A stretch of DNA of 24,000 nt from Vagococcus fluvialis (GTDB lineage Bacteria; Bacillota; Bacilli; Lactobacillales; Vagococcaceae). Numbering within the stretch: the stretch's first letter is position 1; each line of letters begins with the position of its first letter. Position numbers and translations under genes: made by a program. Shown piece by piece: positions 14,955 through 22,944 of this stretch. The notes under the pieces are model-generated. The model was not told the origin of the DNA and made no database searches. It saw only the letters and a program-made list of their open reading frames with translations. The DNA lies in the NCBI RefSeq assembly GCF_003337315.1, contig NZ_QPJV01000012.1, positions 51,247-75,246 of the forward strand, read 5' to 3'.

Positions 14955-14991
14955 AAAAAAGAACTAACTCCTAGGAGCTAGTTCTTTTTTT
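14955..14991. terminator. Bidirectional terminator between oppF and the convergent M42 peptidase gene
   Basis: Arm aaaaaagaactaac, loop tcctagga, arm gctagttctttttt, with one internal mismatch. T-runs follow on both strands. Confidence 0.8.
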
Positions 14992-16081
14992 ATTTAATTT
15001 CATTTTTTATAGAAAGTAATTTTTCTTGGGTCATTGTACTACAAAATTCTGTTAGTAATTGGACAGTTTGATAGTAATCTTTTCTATGAATCAACAGGCG
15101 AGAAGAGTGCATGTATCTCGTTGGTAATGATAAGGTCATTGTTGGAATACCTGTCATTGCTTTATGAATATTACAAGCATCAGTTCCACCCTCAGTCATA
15201 AAATCATAATTAATATCAAGGTTTAACTGATCAGAAAGAAATTTCATTTCTTTGTAAACGCCTCTATGAGCCATAGTCAGTGAGTCTAAAAAAGAGAGTA
15301 CAACGCCATTTCCTAAAGCCGTACTTCCAGAATCAAGAGGAGTATCTTGACTTGTAGTAACATCAAGAGCAATAGCTAAATCTGGTTTAATCACATGTGT
15401 AGCAGTTCTTGTACCGCGAATCCCAACTTCTTCTTGGGTGGAGGCAACAAAATAAATATTGGCATCATGGTTAATTTCTTTTAAGTTTTGAATAATTTCT
15501 GTACATACTGCAACACAGATACGGTCATCCCATGCTTTTCCCAGTAAGTAGTCAGGATTATTCATGACTCTAAATTTAGTATTAGGTGTCACCATATCAC
15601 CTATTTCAATGCCTAGGGAAAGAACTTCTTCTTTTGAAGAAACACCTAGGTCTAGATATAGATCCATAGGTTCAATTACTTTGCTCTTTTCTTTTTCAGG
15701 CATTCCATGAGGGGCACGACAACCAACTACACCAATATATTCTTGTTCACTAATAGTTGTGACAACCATCTCTTGAGCTGGCATAACAAGCCCCCACCAA
15801 CCTCCAATTGGCAGTAAATAAACGAATCCATTTTCATCTATATGTCTAACCATAAAGCCAACTTCATCCATATGTGCAGAAAGCATAATATTAGGCCCAT
15901 CTTTTTTTCCTTTTTTTAAACAAATCATAGAGCCTGAATTATCATAAGAAATATCATCTACAAAATTTTCAACGTGCTTTTTAACTATTCGACTAACAAA
16001 TCTTTCATATCCACCAATTGCGTGAACTTCACTTAACTCTTTTAGGAGAGTTAAATTAACTTTTCCATAAGGTTCCATCAT
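14990..16081 (-). CDS. M42-family metallo-aminopeptidase (PepA/FrvX/YsdC-like), catalytic residues intact
   Basis: I moved the start to ATG 16079-16081 (MMEPYGK...), which has SD aaaggagg 5 nt upstream. The ORF-track start at 16177 would overlap the upstream gene by 80 nt and has no SD. All M42 metal and catalytic motifs are present: SAHMDEVGF, KAWDDR, TQEEVG, IALDV and RYMHS. Confidence 0.88.
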   Translation of the reverse strand: MMEPYGKVNLTLLKELSEVHAIGGYERFVSRIVKKHVENFVDDISYDNSGSMICLKKGKKDGPNIMLSAHMDEVGFMVRHIDENGFVYLLPIGGWWGLVMPAQEMVVTTISEQEYIGVVGCRAPHGMPEKEKSKVIEPMDLYLDLGVSSKEEVLSLGIEIGDMVTPNTKFRVMNNPDYLLGKAWDDRICVAVCTEIIQNLKEINHDANIYFVASTQEEVGIRGTRTATHVIKPDLAIALDVTTSQDTPLDSGSTALGNGVVLSFLDSLTMAHRGVYKEMKFLSDQLNLDINYDFMTEGGTDACNIHKAMTGIPTMTLSLPTRYMHSSRLLIHRKDYYQTVQLLTEFCSTMTQEKLLSIKNEIK

Positions 16082-16097
16082 TTTTCCTCCTTTATAA

Positions 16098-17162
16098 TTA
16101 TCTATTCTCTTGTTTGAAAGATAAGATATCTTCATTAGATAAATTTGAAATGAAATGAAGGGAAGCTTGCAAGGCATTTTCTAAATCTGCTAAATTTATT
16201 ATAGAAGTACTAGCATTTAAATTACTAGCAGGAATGTTTAGCATTAAGGTAGGAGAACCAACTCTTAATTTATGAATCCAGCCAGCATCACTACTTGTTA
16301 ATGAGTAATAATTTTGGAAAGAGATATTTTTTTCTATACAACTATTTTTAAAATCTGTTGTTAATTTTCTATTAGGTAAGATACTTCGGTCATAATAAGT
16401 CAGAAGAAGTCCATCACCTAAAATTCCTTGTTTTTCATTTTTTGTGATGTCGGTATTGGCTTCTAATGTATCGAAAGTAATAGCTAAATCAGGTTGCACT
16501 AAATTTGTTGCTGTTTGGGCACCACGATTACCAACTTGGTTTAAGACAGTTCCACCAGCATATAAATCAAAAGGCAACTCGATATCTTTTAATTCGGTTA
16601 ATAAATGGATTACTTGAAGAGCTCCATATGAACGACCGATTGCTTTTCCGAAATAGTGTGTATTGTTTGCTGAAAGAAAGCTATCTGTTGCATAAGTAAC
16701 AGAGTCCCCGTAATCAATTCCAGCGTTAATGATTTCTTCTTTAGTTAAAAAACCGCATTGAATAACAACTTCATTTTTATCGTTTAAAATTTCACCAGCT
16801 GAATTTGTTGGAACAATAACACCTGGGATAGTTTTGTTGTTAGCAGTGATTACTTGAATCTTACTTCCTAAAAGACTATCTTTTTTATGAATACCAATGG
16901 CAAGGCATTTGATTGTTCCGTTGGTTAGTAATTCTTTAACAACAAAACCACTTTCATCAATATATCCTGATACCATTACAACTGGTGCATTTTCTGTTTG
17001 AGATTTTTTGATACCGAAAATAGAACCGAGGTTATCATAAACAATATCATCGGTAATAGAGACTAATTCTTGTTTTAATAATTGACTCACATTTTTTTCA
17101 TTACCAGAGATAGCTGTTGTTTCAGTTAATTTATTTAATAAAGATAAAGTATCTGTTTTCAT
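16098..17162 (-). CDS. M42-family peptidase paralog with degenerate metal-binding and catalytic residues (predicted pseudo-peptidase)
   Basis: SD aaaggag precedes the start. The protein is colinear with the downstream M42 protein, but the motifs read SGYIDESGF (His to Tyr), KAIGRS (Asp-Asp to Gly-Arg), VLNQVG (Glu-Glu to Asn-Gln) and SNLNA (His to Asn). Only ITFDT keeps its Asp. Confidence 0.8.
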   Translation of the reverse strand: MKTDTLSLLNKLTETTAISGNEKNVSQLLKQELVSITDDIVYDNLGSIFGIKKSQTENAPVVMVSGYIDESGFVVKELLTNGTIKCLAIGIHKKDSLLGSKIQVITANNKTIPGVIVPTNSAGEILNDKNEVVIQCGFLTKEEIINAGIDYGDSVTYATDSFLSANNTHYFGKAIGRSYGALQVIHLLTELKDIELPFDLYAGGTVLNQVGNRGAQTATNLVQPDLAITFDTLEANTDITKNEKQGILGDGLLLTYYDRSILPNRKLTTDFKNSCIEKNISFQNYYSLTSSDAGWIHKLRVGSPTLMLNIPASNLNASTSIINLADLENALQASLHFISNLSNEDILSFKQENR

Positions 17163-17180: not shown

Positions 17181-17212
17181 TTAAAAAGCTCCTGATTAAC
17201 AGGAGCTTTTAT
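17181..17212 (-). terminator. Intra-operon hairpin (partial terminator or RNA-processing/stability element) between the GrdB-like gene and the M42 genes
   Basis: Perfect 11-bp stem, aaaagctcctg (17184-17194) pairing with caggagctttt (17200-17210). On the minus strand it is followed by tttttaatt and then immediately by the SD of the next gene. Confidence 0.55.
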
Positions 17213-17226
17213 TTTGAGAAATAATA

Positions 17227-17748
17227 TTAGTAGCAAAAGCTATTTTTAAATTCTTCTAAATTGTCATTTCGTGCTTTTAAGCCAGCTAATTGGCAAATAT
17301 GATCAAGAGAATCAGTTAATCCAGTTCCACCTTTTTTAGGCATTTTAACGATTGTTATCTTATCTTTGTAAGCAGAAATAACACTGTCACACTCTGTTGA
17401 CATAGCAGTTACAACTGGGATATTAACTTTTTCTTCAATGAATATACCCACTTCAGCACACATTTTTGCATAACCTTCATAATTATAAGAAGGTGCAGCA
17501 ATGACAACATCAGGTGACATTTTTTTTACCATACCTGCTATTTTTTTAGTGACATCTTCTTTATTTTCTAAGTAGAAACCATCACCACAATACAGTGTAG
17601 CAATGACAGAAGCATCTTGTTTTTTTAGAAAAGGCTCCAACATATTATAGGCACCGATACCCATATTTTTACCACCAAGAGGTAGCATAGGATTTTCTTT
17701 TCCACCAAGACCAGCCTGTGTTTGATCAAAAAGTAAAACAACTTTCAT
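17227..17748 (-). CDS. Short GrdB-like protein (N-terminal-domain homolog of glycine/sarcosine/betaine/D-proline reductase component B, no selenocysteine)
   Basis: I moved the start to ATG 17746-17748 (MKVVLLFDQ...), with SD aggag 9 nt upstream. The TTG at 17757 abuts the SD. Sequences VVLLFDQTQAGLGGKEN, VIATLYCGDGFYLEN and PDVVIAAPSYNYEGYAKMCAEVG...IPVVTAM resemble the GrdB/PrdB N-terminus as I recall it. The ORF ends in TAA and has no in-frame TGA. Confidence 0.55.
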   Translation of the reverse strand: MKVVLLFDQTQAGLGGKENPMLPLGGKNMGIGAYNMLEPFLKKQDASVIATLYCGDGFYLENKEDVTKKIAGMVKKMSPDVVIAAPSYNYEGYAKMCAEVGIFIEEKVNIPVVTAMSTECDSVISAYKDKITIVKMPKKGGTGLTDSLDHICQLAGLKARNDNLEEFKNSFCY

Positions 17749-17760
17749 TACCTTCAACTC

Positions 17761-19098
17761 CTATAAGTCATCAAATGAAATATCATCAAATGAGATTTCT
17801 GTTTCTTCAAAGCTAACTGTTTGAGATTCATCTAATAGATATTGCTTATCTAATGTTTTGATAAATGGATAGTAGATTAAACAACCAAGAGCTAGGAGTG
17901 CGAATTGCCAAAGTGCGGCAACAAAGCTTCCTGTTGACAGGTAACCTGAAAATCCGATTGGTGTTGTCCACGGTAAAGCAACACCAGTTGTATAAGGAAT
18001 AATTCCCATTTTTGTTGCAAATGTTGATAGTACTAAGTTAATTTGAGGAACTAAGATAAATGGAATCGCCATAATTGGATTTAAAATAATTGGTAAACCA
18101 AAGATGATTGGTTCGTTAATACCAAAAATACCAGGAACTAGTGACAGTTTACCTAATTGCTTAATACGTTGTGATTTACAGAATAAAATCATTACAATAA
18201 CTAATGATAATGTACTTCCGCCACCACCCCAGTTAGTAAAGAAGTTTGAGAATGGATCAGTAAAGATATTAGGTAAATCAGCGCCGTTTTGGAAAGCATC
18301 TAAGTTTTCCATTGTTAAAACTTTTGTAACAGGGCCAAATACTGAGTTGGCAACAGCGGGACCGTTAATACCAAATACCCAAAATACAGTACAAGCTAGT
18401 CCATAGATTAATTGGGCAGTTAATGTATTTCCTACACCTTTTAATGGTGTTTGTAACACTTCAAAAATCAAGTTATGCATAGTCTCAAATGGAGTCATTG
18501 CAATTCCAATACGAATAAAGAAGAATAAAATCATAACAATTGAACTTGGAATTAGTGCTTCAAATGATTTAACTACTGCAGGTGGAACTCCATCAGGCAT
18601 TTTAATTGTCCAACCTCTACGATATACCCAGTTAAATAACCAAACAGAAGTTAGAGATACTAAAAGACCTAAGAAGATACCATCAGAACCTAGAAAGTCT
18701 AAGCTTAAAGCTCCTAATGGGTTTTCTAAACCTTCAACATTGATTCTTGTAGGCGTTAAAATTAAAAATGAAACAATACCAATCGCAGCTGATTGAATCG
18801 CATCACCTTTTAATTCACGACCATAAGCGTAACTTGTACCAAAAACTGTTAAGAAACCAACCATGTTAAAGACAGCTCTTGAAACGTTTGTAAACCACAT
18901 TTCCCAACCTTCACCAAAGTAGCCAGCCCAAAATTCAGACCAGTTTGGAATAGGGAAGTTAGCAATTAATAGGAATATAGATGCTACAATGATTAGAGGT
19001 GTTGTAATTAAAAAACCATCTCTGATCGCGATTAATACCTTGTTTTTCCCTAACTTATCGGCAACTGGCATTAAAACTTTTTCTAATTTATTCATCAT
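17761..19098 (-). CDS. PTS lactose/cellobiose(chitobiose)-family EIIC permease
   Basis: The 445-aa polytopic protein carries the family-typical motif GINEPIIFGLPIILNP. SD aaggag is upstream. It has an unusual acidic C-terminal tail ending EISFDDISFDDL. Confidence 0.9.
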   Translation of the reverse strand: MMNKLEKVLMPVADKLGKNKVLIAIRDGFLITTPLIIVASIFLLIANFPIPNWSEFWAGYFGEGWEMWFTNVSRAVFNMVGFLTVFGTSYAYGRELKGDAIQSAAIGIVSFLILTPTRINVEGLENPLGALSLDFLGSDGIFLGLLVSLTSVWLFNWVYRRGWTIKMPDGVPPAVVKSFEALIPSSIVMILFFFIRIGIAMTPFETMHNLIFEVLQTPLKGVGNTLTAQLIYGLACTVFWVFGINGPAVANSVFGPVTKVLTMENLDAFQNGADLPNIFTDPFSNFFTNWGGGGSTLSLVIVMILFCKSQRIKQLGKLSLVPGIFGINEPIIFGLPIILNPIMAIPFILVPQINLVLSTFATKMGIIPYTTGVALPWTTPIGFSGYLSTGSFVAALWQFALLALGCLIYYPFIKTLDKQYLLDESQTVSFEETEISFDDISFDDL

Positions 19099-19113: not shown

Positions 19114-19443
19114 TTATTTCTTGTTATTTTTTAAAGCAATAAGTGCCTGTTTTAATACTTTAGCACCATTCATTACACCGTAATCTTCTGAGTCAATCAT
19201 TAAAATAGGTTGACCGTATTTCTCAAAGTTTTTTACAGTATCATCATATAGATAGCGAACTTGTGGTCCCAACATAATTACATCTGGATGTTCTTTATCA
19301 ATTATTTCCTGCAACAAACCATGAGAGAATGCTTTGACTTCTACAGGCATTTTATTTTCAGTAGCCACATTTTGCATTTTTTGGGCTAGCATACTTGTTG
19401 ACATACCTTGACTACAAAATAAATAGATTTTTTTATTACTCAT
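19114..19443 (-). CDS. PTS lactose/cellobiose-family EIIB
   Basis: I moved the start to ATG 19441-19443 (MSNKKIYLFCSQGMSTSML...), with SD aaggagg 7 nt upstream. The active-site Cys lies in the LFCSQGMSTS context typical of ChbB/CelA-type EIIB. Confidence 0.88.
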   Translation of the reverse strand: MSNKKIYLFCSQGMSTSMLAQKMQNVATENKMPVEVKAFSHGLLQEIIDKEHPDVIMLGPQVRYLYDDTVKNFEKYGQPILMIDSEDYGVMNGAKVLKQALIALKNNKK

Positions 19444-19456
19444 TTTTATTTCCTCC

Positions 19457-20410
19457 TTATTCAATAGGTGCTTTTATTCTTTTTTCGTAAGCATCTAACC
19501 ATTCCTGAGTAATAGGTTCAATCACAGTTGTGTGATTTTCTCCCATATTAGCAATAAAAATAGCAGATTCTTCTTTATCGTTTCCAACAGAAAAAGTAAA
19601 CTCCACGTTTGTTGCGACACCCCATTCACCTGTATTATTCATAGCTACAAGAGAGAAGGCACCTGCTTTTCCGTATCGTTTTGTTAATGTGTCGTGGAAA
19701 GAATAAACTGTTTGGTCGCAAGCTTCTTGAGGTGATAAACCTTCTTTCATTTTTCTAACAATTTCATATGAAAGAATACCTTTCATTAAATCCTCGCCTA
19801 AGCCAGTTGCAGCAGCTCCACCGACTTCACTATCAACATAAAATCCAGAACCAGATAATGGTGAATCACCAACACGACCAGGACGTTTCATGAAAAGACC
19901 AGAGCTTGATGTACCAGCTGTCATACTTCCATGAGTATCCAAAGTAACAACACCAACTGTGTCATGACCATCATAAGGACTTAAATTGTGTTTTTTCATG
20001 TCATCTAAGCGATTTTGCCAGATTTTTTTAGCGCGATCAGTAAGCATTTCTTTTTCTTCAAAACCATGCTCAATCGCATATTGTGTTGCTCCGTCACCAA
20101 TTAAAAAACTATTGAATTTTTCGTGACTTAATTTTCTTGCAACAGAAATTGGATTTTTAATATCAACAATTCCTGCTACCGCACCTATTTGGAAGGTATC
20201 TCCATCCATAAAGGCAGCATCCATTTCTAAAATTCCTTTTGCATTTGGTAACCCACCAAAGCCAACAGATTTGTAGTATGGATAATCTTCAACAGATTTT
20301 ACTGTTGTCTCGAGAGCATCACCAGCAGAAGCACCAGATTTTAATTGTTCCATTGCAGCAACAATGCCATCATGAGCCATTCTCCAGGTTGCGATTGTCC
20401 CGTAATTCAT
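19457..20410 (-). CDS. Ntn-hydrolase of the asparaginase-2 family, glycosylasparaginase-like (N4-(beta-N-acetylglucosaminyl)-L-asparaginase type)
   Basis: I moved the start to ATG 20408-20410 (MNYGTIATW...), with SD ggagaggtgagg upstream. The autoprocessing/nucleophile motif is GHDTVGVV, i.e. the HDT[IV]G form of glycosylasparaginases rather than the GTVGAV form of IaaA-type isoaspartyl peptidases. The substrate-carboxylate/amino binding motif RVGDSPLSGSG and the motif ATGLGE are also present. Confidence 0.75.
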   Translation of the reverse strand: MNYGTIATWRMAHDGIVAAMEQLKSGASAGDALETTVKSVEDYPYYKSVGFGGLPNAKGILEMDAAFMDGDTFQIGAVAGIVDIKNPISVARKLSHEKFNSFLIGDGATQYAIEHGFEEKEMLTDRAKKIWQNRLDDMKKHNLSPYDGHDTVGVVTLDTHGSMTAGTSSSGLFMKRPGRVGDSPLSGSGFYVDSEVGGAAATGLGEDLMKGILSYEIVRKMKEGLSPQEACDQTVYSFHDTLTKRYGKAGAFSLVAMNNTGEWGVATNVEFTFSVGNDKEESAIFIANMGENHTTVIEPITQEWLDAYEKRIKAPIE

Positions 20411-20436
20411 GTTAAGCCTCACCTCTCCGATTAAAA

Positions 20437-20451
20437 TAATAACGTTTTCAA
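20437..20451 (-). promoter_or_regulatory. cre-like (CcpA) box in the leader of the glycosylasparaginase-PTS operon
   Basis: The minus strand reads TTGAAAACGTTATTA against the consensus WTGNAANCGNWNNCW, with one mismatch at position 14. It lies between the predicted -10 and the SD. Confidence 0.45.
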
Positions 20452-20456
20452 TAATC

Positions 20457-20489
20457 ATTATATAATAGTATATACTGTTTTGTCTATAC
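20457..20489 (-). promoter_or_regulatory. Sigma-A promoter of the glycosylasparaginase-PTS operon overlapped by two HutC/GntR-type operator motifs
   Basis: On the minus strand, -35 TAGACA (20481-20486) is separated by 18 nt from -10 TATAAT (20457-20462). The 10-bp perfect palindrome AGTATATACT (20467-20476) sits in the spacer, and GTCTATAC (20482-20489) overlaps the -35. Both fit the HutC-subfamily consensus GTMTAKAC. Confidence 0.6.
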
Positions 20490-20857: not shown

Positions 20858-21574
20858 TTAAGGTCTGTGTAAGATATTTTTAAATGTATATTTGTCTGCT
20901 CGGTAATAAGAGTTATCATAAAGAATTGGAATACCTGAAGCTGCATAAGTAACTGTGTGAACTAATAATAATGGATCACCTAAAGGAACATCTAAATATT
21001 CACTTAATTCTTTGGTTACTAGAACAGCTTCAATTTCTTGATGAGAATAAGAAATATCAATTTGTTCAGAAATTAAGCTGAAAATTGAATGTTCTATGTC
21101 TTTTTCAGTAATATCTTTTGGTAGAAAAGAAGTCCTAATATAGATTTCTTCAATGGTCATAGGGTCTTCGTCAAAATATCTAAGACGCTTGATACGGTAA
21201 ATACTTTCATTTTCAACTTGAAGTTTTTTCTTAACTTCGTCTGGGAGGTTAGTCACAATTTCAAAATTAATAACAATCGATTTTGATGTTTTACCAAAGG
21301 CCTTAGCACTTTCAGTAAAACTTAATAGTCCATTTTGTCCACTTTGAAATTTATCACTTTGTTTCATTATGTAAGTCCCTTTACCTCTTTGTTTAACAAG
21401 AAGATTTTGAGAAATCAGTAAATCAATCGCTTTTCTAACGGTTAATCGACTGACATCGAATTCTTTTGCTAAATCATATTCAGAAGGTAATTTTTGTTTT
21501 TGACTATAGGTTCCGTCATCAATATTATTTTTAATTTTACTAGCAACTGTTTCAAATATATTTGGTTTTTTCAT
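20858..21574 (-). CDS. GntR-family transcriptional regulator, HutC subfamily (wHTH + UTRA effector domain)
   Basis: I moved the start to ATG 21572-21574 (MKKPNIFETV...), with SD aaaggag 5 nt upstream. The wHTH is KLPSEYDLAKEFDVSRLTVRKAIDLLISQNLLVKQRGKGTYI. The length of about 240 aa and the C-terminal half are consistent with a UTRA domain. Confidence 0.88.
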   Translation of the reverse strand: MKKPNIFETVASKIKNNIDDGTYSQKQKLPSEYDLAKEFDVSRLTVRKAIDLLISQNLLVKQRGKGTYIMKQSDKFQSGQNGLLSFTESAKAFGKTSKSIVINFEIVTNLPDEVKKKLQVENESIYRIKRLRYFDEDPMTIEEIYIRTSFLPKDITEKDIEHSIFSLISEQIDISYSHQEIEAVLVTKELSEYLDVPLGDPLLLVHTVTYAASGIPILYDNSYYRADKYTFKNILHRP

Positions 21575-21636
21575 ATGAACTCCTTTCATCACGAGTGTAT
21601 TATATCATGAAAGAGTAAGAGGTTTTAGTGAAAAAA

Positions 21637-22944
21637 CTATTTTCCTAATTCAGATAAAAGGTAAGTATAAATTTCTAAATTTTTAAGTAAATCTTTTTTA
21701 TCCATGTACTCATTTTTATTATGAGCAATCCCTTTTTGACCAGGGAATGAAGGTCCAAAAGCCATAATATTAGGCATTGATCTAGCATAAGTTGCCCCTG
21801 TTGTTGTAACAGGTGTTCCATCTAAACCTGTAGCGTACTCATAAACTTCAGTCATTGTTTTAACCATCGGATGTTCTTTGTCAAAATTTGTTGATGGCAT
21901 GTCTCTTGTAACTTCCATAGTAGAATTCTTTGGTAATTGAGTGTTTAAAATATTAATAATATCTTCTTTTTTAGTGCTGACAGGGTAACGCATACTTAAA
22001 TTTAAAGTTGCTTCCTGATTATCAAAGAAAAGAGAACAGGGTGTTAATGACAAGTAACCAGATTCTTCATCAAAAAAGTTAATATTAAGACCAGCTCCAT
22101 CATGTTGAAGATGTAAGCTTTTAGCTAGCCAAGTAAGATAATCTTTAAATTCACCTGTTACTTCAGGATTGTCTTTAGCTTCATTAGCAAAATAAGTAAT
22201 CACGTTTTCCCCCATGTCTGGTGCATTACTTGGAGCACGTTTTCCTTTAATATCAAAAGCTTTATTACTAATTGAGTAGTGTAAGGTATCTGGGACAGCG
22301 CTACGATCAAAATTAGCTGAAAAGTCAGTTAAGACATTTTGGGAGTTATCACTTAGTTTTGTTTTAATTGAAAGACCTAATACACCTCGCTCACCGTAAA
22401 CAGCTGGATATTTACAATCAGGTGTATAACCATACATGGGTGGAACCTCTTCTTTTAGGTAAAGAGGAATATCAGCAGAACCACTTTCTTCATCAGTACC
22501 AAAAATAATACGAATAGTTTTGGTAAAAGGGTAATTCATTTCTCTTAATAGATACAAAGCATAAAGATTAGCAATAATTGGTCCCTTGTTATCAAGAACA
22601 CCGCGACCGTAAAAGACATCATTATCAAGCGTTAAATCGAAAGGTGGGTAATCCCAATCAGTTCCCTCAGGTACGACATCGATATGTCCAACAACTCCGA
22701 TGTAGTTTTCATTGTCATCACCAAGTTGCGCATAACCCATAGCACCATTTATAATCTTTGTAGTAAAACCTAGTTCTTTAGCTAAGTTTAAAGTTTCTTC
22801 TAGTGCTTTTTTTGGTCCTAGACCAAAGGGGGCGTTAGGTTGTGCTTCACCTTTTACACTGTTAATTTGCATAATTCTACGAAGACCACTAAAAAATTTC
22901 GGTTCAATTTCTTTTAAAGCTTCATCAAACATTGAATAAGTCAA
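21637..22944 (-). CDS. M20-family dipeptidase (PepV/Sapep-like), catalytic residues intact
   Basis: TTG start, with SD aaggag 7 nt upstream. M20 motifs are present: GVVGHIDVVPEG, GRGVLDNKGP, FGTDEESGS, YTPDCKYPAVYGERG and GIAHNKNEY. Confidence 0.85.
   Translation of the reverse strand: MTYSMFDEALKEIEPKFFSGLRRIMQINSVKGEAQPNAPFGLGPKKALEETLNLAKELGFTTKIINGAMGYAQLGDDNENYIGVVGHIDVVPEGTDWDYPPFDLTLDNDVFYGRGVLDNKGPIIANLYALYLLREMNYPFTKTIRIIFGTDEESGSADIPLYLKEEVPPMYGYTPDCKYPAVYGERGVLGLSIKTKLSDNSQNVLTDFSANFDRSAVPDTLHYSISNKAFDIKGKRAPSNAPDMGENVITYFANEAKDNPEVTGEFKDYLTWLAKSLHLQHDGAGLNINFFDEESGYLSLTPCSLFFDNQEATLNLSMRYPVSTKKEDIINILNTQLPKNSTMEVTRDMPSTNFDKEHPMVKTMTEVYEYATGLDGTPVTTTGATYARSMPNIMAFGPSFPGQKGIAHNKNEYMDKKDLLKNLEIYTYLLSELGK

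Follow-up and report, generated by a model that had tools for sequence, protein, structure and literature searches.

Directly upstream of a gene for a canonical M42 aminopeptidase, Vagococcus fluvialis carries a second M42 gene whose reading frame is intact and most of whose catalytic residues have been replaced. We asked whether this upstream copy is a decaying duplicate, a peptidase in another guise, or a protein that is retained for some role beside its live neighbor. The stretch of DNA analyzed here (24,000 nucleotides; hereafter 'the window') contains eight co-oriented genes on its minus strand, running from an M20 peptidase gene through the downstream M42 gene. In the order in which they would be transcribed, the features of this region are:

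21637..22944, minus strand: PepV-like M20 peptidase, homologous to, and co-located with, M20 genes beside GntR in related loci
20858..21592, minus strand: GntR/UTRA regulator of the LSA1692 subfamily (NF041547, 345.9 bits)
20486-20457, minus strand: best promoter-like site, preceding the asparaginase gene
19457..20458, minus strand: Asparaginase_2 (Ntn) hydrolase, glycosylasparaginase-type, the first gene behind that site
19114..19464, minus strand: PTS EIIB, lactose/cellobiose family
17761..19098, minus strand: PTS EIIC, lactose/cellobiose family
17227..17757, minus strand: GrdB-like protein without selenocysteine (NF041545, 245.8 bits)
17181..17212, minus strand: stem-loop AAAAGCTCCTG-ttaat-CAGGAGCTTTT with a T-rich tail, read from the sequence
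16098..17162, minus strand: upstream M42 copy (354 aa) whose metal site is eroded, C-terminus FKQENR
14990..16081, minus strand: canonical M42 aminopeptidase, 363 aa
14920..14944, minus strand: terminator-like hairpin at the operon end, 3' of the downstream M42 gene

The downstream gene encodes an unambiguous family member (316.1 bits against PF05343). A mechanical open reading frame for it (14990-16177, minus strand, 395 aa) is 32 codons longer and overlaps the end of the upstream M42 gene. The start at 16081, 16 nt past the stop of the upstream copy, is likely the true one, because it fits the orthologs (MEPYGKV...) and sits behind AAAGGAGG; the start at 16177, which would overlap the upstream gene, is unlikely. 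The genome contains six full-length M42 genes in total.

The upstream copy also belongs to the M42 family (PF05343; MEROPS M42), with a score of 163.6 bits (cut-off 23.2) over profile positions 1-290 of 292. The best named NCBIfam models for both M42 proteins of the window are PRK09961 and PRK09864, and both score under the model cut-offs. An AF2 model of the upstream protein, built on 22 orthologs, was confident (pLDDT 90.1, pTM 0.88), and a Foldseek search with that model gave TM scores of 0.86-0.91 over ~340-360 columns to 9A5R, 5DS0, 1VHE, 3KL9 and 1Y0R, the best match being 9A5R chain A (TM 0.91). The model and these matches together show the two-domain M42 fold, comprising a catalytic domain and an inserted PDZ-like dimerization domain.

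We placed the catalytic positions with HMMER alignments to S. pneumoniae PepA (3KL9) and 5DS0, which were free of gaps across the motif blocks, and used the ligand roles that have been assigned for PhTET2 and PhTET1 (PMC8993905, PMC12516491). The seven positions read as follows:

M2 histidine: upstream Y67, downstream H70
Asp of HxD: upstream D69 (kept), downstream D72
bridging aspartate: upstream G176, downstream D185
catalytic glutamate: upstream N208, downstream E217
M1 glutamate: upstream Q209, downstream E218
M2 aspartate: upstream D231 (kept), downstream D240
M1 histidine: upstream N316, downstream H325

Five of the seven catalytic residues, spread over four of the five motifs, are therefore replaced in the upstream protein. 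D69 and D231 remain; the M1 ligands are missing altogether (G176, Q209 and N316), and D231 is the sole survivor among the metal ligands. By the seven catalytic residues that an archaeal TET survey of 2025 used as its inclusion criterion (PMC12516491), the upstream copy is a homolog and not a peptidase. Five glycines are also conserved in the family (residues 44, 77, 85, 86 and 211 of PhTET1; PMC12516491); G46, G90 and G211 of the dead copy, in its own numbering, are invariant in the ortholog alignment A1.

These alignments agree with a preliminary description of the locus, which had been made from the sequence alone. It had read the motifs as YIDE, IGRS, LNQVG, FDT and NLN in the upstream protein and as HMDE, WDDR, QEEVG, LDV and YMH in the downstream one (with the preceding residue, AIGRS and AWDDR), and every detail of both readings was borne out. 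The two proteins are colinear, as it had said (31% identity, E 5e-49), the upstream frame of 354 codons is intact behind a good Shine-Dalgarno sequence (AAAGGAG, 9 nt 5' of the start), and the loss of the His, Asp, Glu-Glu and His residues that it had reported corresponds to Y67, G176, N208, Q209 and N316. The comparison with the PepA structure that it had proposed (3KL9, together with 5DS0) confirmed that the ligand positions are replaced.

A protein of this kind might still act as a metallo-aminopeptidase if it used ligands at shifted positions, and D69, E70 and D231 would be available to such a site. We found no supporting evidence for this reading, and several observations weigh against it: the motif blocks are gap-free against 3KL9 and 5DS0 with high posterior probability, neither histidine position retains a histidine, and residues like Gly, Asn and Gln would coordinate the metals of a dinuclear Zn/Co site poorly. 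We regard it as very improbable, and replacement ligands are, judging by the alignments, probably absent from the three-dimensional neighborhood of the site as well.

If the upstream protein has lost its metal site, the gene might simply be decaying. We compared the window's genes with those of a 76%-identical ortholog locus on contig L100, from which the genes differ at 47–57% of four-fold sites; dS there is 1.0-1.6, near saturation, so that the ratios are rough although far below 1, and with that limit dN/dS was 0.11 (NG86) or 0.15 (LWL85) for the dead M42 copy, 0.05 or 0.07 for the GrdB-like gene, and 0.06 or 0.10 for the live M42 copy, for which 177 codons were available. Maximum-likelihood estimation in Biopython was unstable for the dead copy (dS 0.23, omega 0.83, with dS above 2 for the neighbors), and the NG86 and LWL85 estimates were preferred. 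All 37 upstream reading frames in our collection, from several families, are intact and stop-free, and 49 columns are invariant in an alignment of 22 sequences. The upstream copy does outpace its partner, with a rate about 1.7 times as high (identity averages 46% between pairs of upstream copies and 62% between pairs of downstream ones, and is lower upstream in 626 of 630 comparisons), which is a real, moderate relaxation.

The reading of the upstream gene as a decaying duplicate, a nascent pseudogene without function, could draw on that faster evolution and on a patchy distribution in the genus, where an ortholog was present in one of the 19 other genomes searched, with one more in a neighboring genus. 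Against it stand the 37 intact frames, the dN/dS of ~0.1, the invariant columns and the confident structural model, and we consider it barely credible. Because all frames are intact and dN/dS is ~0.11-0.15, gene decay is excluded as far as these sequences can tell. The preliminary description had taken purifying selection as the mark of a retained function and frameshifts or relaxed selection as that of decay; what we found was a ratio of ~0.11-0.15 vs 0.05-0.10 for the neighboring genes, with no frameshifts or stops among the orthologs, which supports retention. Having lost most of its catalytic residues while remaining under purifying selection, the dead copy has the marks of a pseudoenzyme.

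Orthologs of the upstream protein (40-76% identity) were found by a word-indexed search in Vagococcus, Enterococcus, Lacticaseibacillus, Companilactobacillus and metagenomes, and all of them end in the same C-terminal motif, F-K-x-E-N-R. When one genome per species was scanned, 80 loci matched, and in 32 of these a second M42 gene lies directly 3' of the match; GrdB-like and EIIC genes lie 5' in most. Genomes related to that of the window, together with short metagenome contigs, supplied four further pairs, for a total of 36 loci outside the window. The order EIIC, GrdB-like, upstream M42, downstream M42 recurs across these 36 loci, in hosts that include Enterococcus, Lacticaseibacillus, Companilactobacillus, Clostridium, Tissierella and many Erysipelotrichaceae. 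The GrdB-like protein, which is about half the length of GrdB, is part of this conserved core: of the 32 paired genome loci (L001-L032), 28 have its gene between EIIC and the M42 pair, and at least five loci have a second GrdB-like gene beside an asparaginase gene.

A maximum-likelihood tree of 92 M42 sequences placed the upstream copies in one clade and the downstream copies in another (SH-aLRT 99 each), with mirrored internal topology. The two mirrored clades imply that the duplication is old and predates the spread of the module, and that the two genes have stayed together from then on. The downstream signature is H-D-D-E-E-D-H in all 36 rows, and the unpaired sister clade and the other M42 paralogs examined are canonical as well, if Glu for Asp at the sixth position, a known alternative, is allowed. 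The upstream copy is canonical in six of 37 rows, all six of them from Erysipelotrichaceae, and noncanonical in the other 31. Each of those 31 adjoins a canonical copy, and its unpaired relatives are canonical throughout; in this collection the dead copy thus co-occurs obligately with an active paralog.

The noncanonical copies are not alike. Their pattern over the seven positions is H-D-N-E-Q-D-N/D in most Enterococcus and lactobacilli, H-D-D-N-E-D-K or H-D-N-H-E-D-E in clostridia, H-D-N-N-K-E-N in Tissierella, H-D-E-E-E-G-Y in Holdemanella, and Y/F-D-G/R-N-Q/E-D-N/D in the window and its three closest relatives. On the tree these patterns require at least three independent transitions from canonical to noncanonical and at least 15 site-level changes, with minimum numbers of five at the bridging Asp, four at the ligand Glu, two each at the catalytic Glu and the second His, and one each at the first His and the second Asp. 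The first His has been lost only in the window's subclade, which is the most eroded and sits on a long stem branch, and ligand loss as a whole arose solely in the paired upstream lineage. Erosion in the upstream lineage is thus graded, and the window's protein stands at its far end; it is not an isolated oddity. Around the replaced sites, D69, E70, V210, G211, R213, G214, Q216, T217, A218, P224 and D225 are conserved, and varied replacements amid such strict conservation are what would be expected where catalysis, and not the fold, has become dispensable.

The same series bears on whether the upstream protein has acquired a function of its own, with neither a dinuclear metal centre nor a complex with the live paralog: lectin-like or chaperone-like binding of a glycan or glyco-amino-acid, for example, or some other reaction. 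Purifying selection, together with lineage-specific residues (W295, N314, LPNR at 262-265, Y257, Q283 and the FKxENR terminus), would fit a retained surface, and most Lactobacillales orthologs (H-D-N-E-Q-D-N) keep the His, the catalytic Glu and the Asp and could hold a single M2 metal. Mono-zinc glutaminyl cyclases, too, derive from this MH-clan fold. The lineage-specific residues, however, are equally conserved in members with a canonical site, and so are not tied to a new chemistry; the replacements at the lost positions vary by lineage (N/T/G/R/Q/E, N/H, Q/H/K/T and N/D/K/E/Q/Y), which indicates lost constraint there and not a newly selected site. The window's protein, moreover, has only D231 left of its ligands, and no noncanonical upstream copy was found away from an adjacent live copy (31 of 31). 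An independent function of this kind seems to us unlikely, if worth keeping in mind.

We favor instead the reading that the dead copy partners the adjacent live M42 protein as a non-catalytic subunit, and judge its prospects to be somewhat better than even. The fold, the ligand loss, the conserved pairing, the purifying selection and the repeated loss of ligands in the paired lineage only are all computed observations. The adjacency of a canonical neighbor in every case, beside the intact frames and low dN/dS, had already spoken for a retained function, as the preliminary description had suggested, and the repeated, independent ligand loss in the paired lineage and the co-variation of upstream and downstream distances do so further. 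Pairwise distances of the two copies are correlated with r = 0.91, the highest value for any pair of module genes, and with a partial r of 0.61 when EIIC and the GrdB-like protein are controlled for; in both figures the points are non-independent and neighboring genes share a history, and mirror-tree correlation is weak evidence of interaction. Rosetta-stone fusions were also sought, and the seven two-domain M42 proteins found have halves that fall in neither clade of the window's pair, and so say nothing about it.

Heteromers of M42 paralogs are known from two systems. In B. subtilis, in-cell cross-linking and an integrative model (9A5R) describe a YtoP-YsdC heteromer (O'Reilly et al. 2023, PMC10090944). 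The dead copy matches that model better than any other structure found, and in sequence the live copy is nearest to YsdC (1VHE; E 3e-86). As in the window, two bacterial M42 paralogs are concerned; YtoP and YsdC make contact in cells. To our knowledge, neither B. subtilis partner has been described as having lost ligands, and ytoP and ysdC are not an adjacent gene pair in a PTS operon. In Pyrococcus, PhTET2 and PhTET3 form a hetero-dodecamer (PMC4220976; Appolaire et al. 2014, as cited in PMC12516491). The P. horikoshii proteins are, like the window pair, sister M42 paralogs that arose by duplication, and co-assembly into one particle is a property of the PhTET proteins; both of those subunits are active and differ in specificity alone, whereas the dead subunit of the window lacks five of its seven catalytic residues and with them the entire M1 site.

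The M1 site matters for assembly. TET metals, M1 above all, are described as stabilizing the dodecamer in the passage of PMC8993905 that cites Colombo 2016 and Dutoit 2019. With its M1 ligands gone, the dead copy may on that account not enter a dodecamer, and the complex may differ from a classical TET. One sub-case of the partner idea has a different outcome: an M1-less subunit would form small or conditionally assembling hetero-dimers with the live paralog and so tune its activity. Consistent with this, all three M1 ligands are missing from the window's protein, M1 is implicated in the oligomer interface (PMC8993905), and the deposited entries for TmPep1050 include a dimeric form (5NE6) as well as the ligand mutants H60A and H307A (5NE7, 5NE8). 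The canonical upstream orthologs of Erysipelotrichaceae nevertheless share the module, which points to an ancestral role independent of metal loss, and this form of regulation appears quite unlikely.

For the partner-subunit reading itself, we infer a physical interaction, its stoichiometry, its substrate and the contribution of the dead subunit, and propose the following scheme. The dead subunit would join the live M42 protein in a mixed oligomer built from hetero-dimers, possibly a hetero-dodecamer, in which it would shape assembly, stability or substrate handling and the live subunit would cleave. The PTS operon would import GlcNAc-Asn or related glyco-amino-acids and short glycopeptides, and the live M42 protein and the PepV-like M20 peptidase would remove residues to present the glycosylasparaginase with a free Asn. 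In a more elaborate version, which we think improbable, the dead subunit would be an obligatory block of a mixed TET, its metal-free pocket holding the GlcNAc or GlcNAc-6-P of an imported glycopeptide while live neighbors trim it. If that version were true, the particle would be a self-compartmentalized peptidase with built-in substrate-recognition subunits, and TET particles would assemble around M1-free subunits, though the M1 metal is now held to be necessary.

The substrate in this scheme is suggested by the operon. In E. faecalis, GlcNAc-L-Asn is taken up by way of the enterococcal glycosylasparaginase (ega) locus, which encodes a cellobiose-type PTS and depends on an EIIA, CelA1, from another place in the genome (Combret et al., Res Microbiol 2024;175:104169, as summarized in PMC11549559 and PMC11976118). 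The window's operon has the same set as given in those summaries, namely a GntR regulator and an M20 dipeptidase, a glycosylasparaginase, cellobiose-type EIIB and EIIC, a GrdB-like 'oxidoreductase' and an EIIA in trans; the gene set of the alfR2-pepV-asnA2 module in L. casei alf-2 (PMC6960285) matches it as well. The window's genome encodes a single cellobiose-type EIIA (PF02255), at a distance from the window on another contig (C5:85340-85618), an arrangement like that in E. faecalis, where several PTS rely on CelA1 alone. By gene content, then, the operon is a predicted ega-type GlcNAc-Asn PTS locus.

The two loci differ in two respects. The GrdB-like gene, intact in the window, is a pseudogene in E. 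faecalis OG1RF according to the summary in PMC11549559, and that summary lists no M42 genes for ega, where the window's operon has the pair. On that description, the M42 pair is not essential for use of GlcNAc-Asn in every species, and its place in the operon makes it a putative accessory part of the GlcNAc-Asn pathway. The neighbors given for L. sakei LSA1692 are EIIC, M20 and pepC genes, with no mention of M42 (PMC3146418). M42 genes likewise lie inside PTS sugar operons in E. coli (frvX, sgcX and ypdE). These E. coli genes are single, and are not known to form dead/live pairs.

The M42 pair is also set apart from the PTS genes by the stem-loop at 17181-17212, a perfect 11-bp hairpin in the 64-nt gap between the GrdB-like and dead M42 genes, directly 5' of the Shine-Dalgarno sequence of the latter. 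It was not called in a consensus terminator scan of the window. It may be a partial terminator that lowers the dosage of the M42 pair, or a stability element, and because it lies between them, co-expression of the M42 pair with the PTS genes is only assumed here.

Work on M42/TET peptidases has dealt with homo-dodecamers or with mixed sets of active paralogs, with the seven catalytic residues defining the family. Pseudoenzyme partners of active paralogs are familiar from other families, as are heteromers from M42 itself; we found no description of a dead M42 subunit in the searchable literature, where 'pseudoenzyme' combined with M42 gave nothing relevant. A conserved, selected and always-paired paralog without ligands would mean that the M42 family, too, has pseudoenzyme subunits, that the catalytic activity of one paralog became dispensable several times independently, and that subunits without metals must have another way to fold and, probably, to assemble. 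The GrdB-like protein and the M42 pair would be unexplained conserved components of a host-glycoprotein scavenging pathway in gut- and infection-associated Firmicutes. For biochemistry, the orthologs form a natural graded series, with canonical members in Erysipelotrichaceae, half-site ones in most Lactobacillales and a fully dead one in the window.

Other variant M42 proteins were seen outside the two clades. One set (P0064, P0099, P0133, P0140, P0141, P0146, P0147, P0164, P0165, P0176 and P0182) is more divergent and has lost nearly all of the catalytic residues (one pattern is S-D-N-S-V-C-G), with C-termini unlike those of the window's clade, and dead M42 proteins may accordingly be more widespread than that clade. 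A comparison of P0141 with 401 genomes of the phylum gave no match, so that the genomic context of this set was not found. Other predicted gene calls (P0065, P0072, P0076, P0081, P0086, P0096 and P0181) encode chains of ~700-790 aa with two full M42 domains. Both halves are canonical in five of these; in P0181 the first half is canonical and the second reads H-D-S-E-L-D-L, and in P0081 the second domain is split. Two further proteins, P0069 and P0085, carry ~210 additional residues N-terminal to an M42 domain; this extension shows no relation to the proteins that the window's operon encodes and looks methyltransferase-like by eye.
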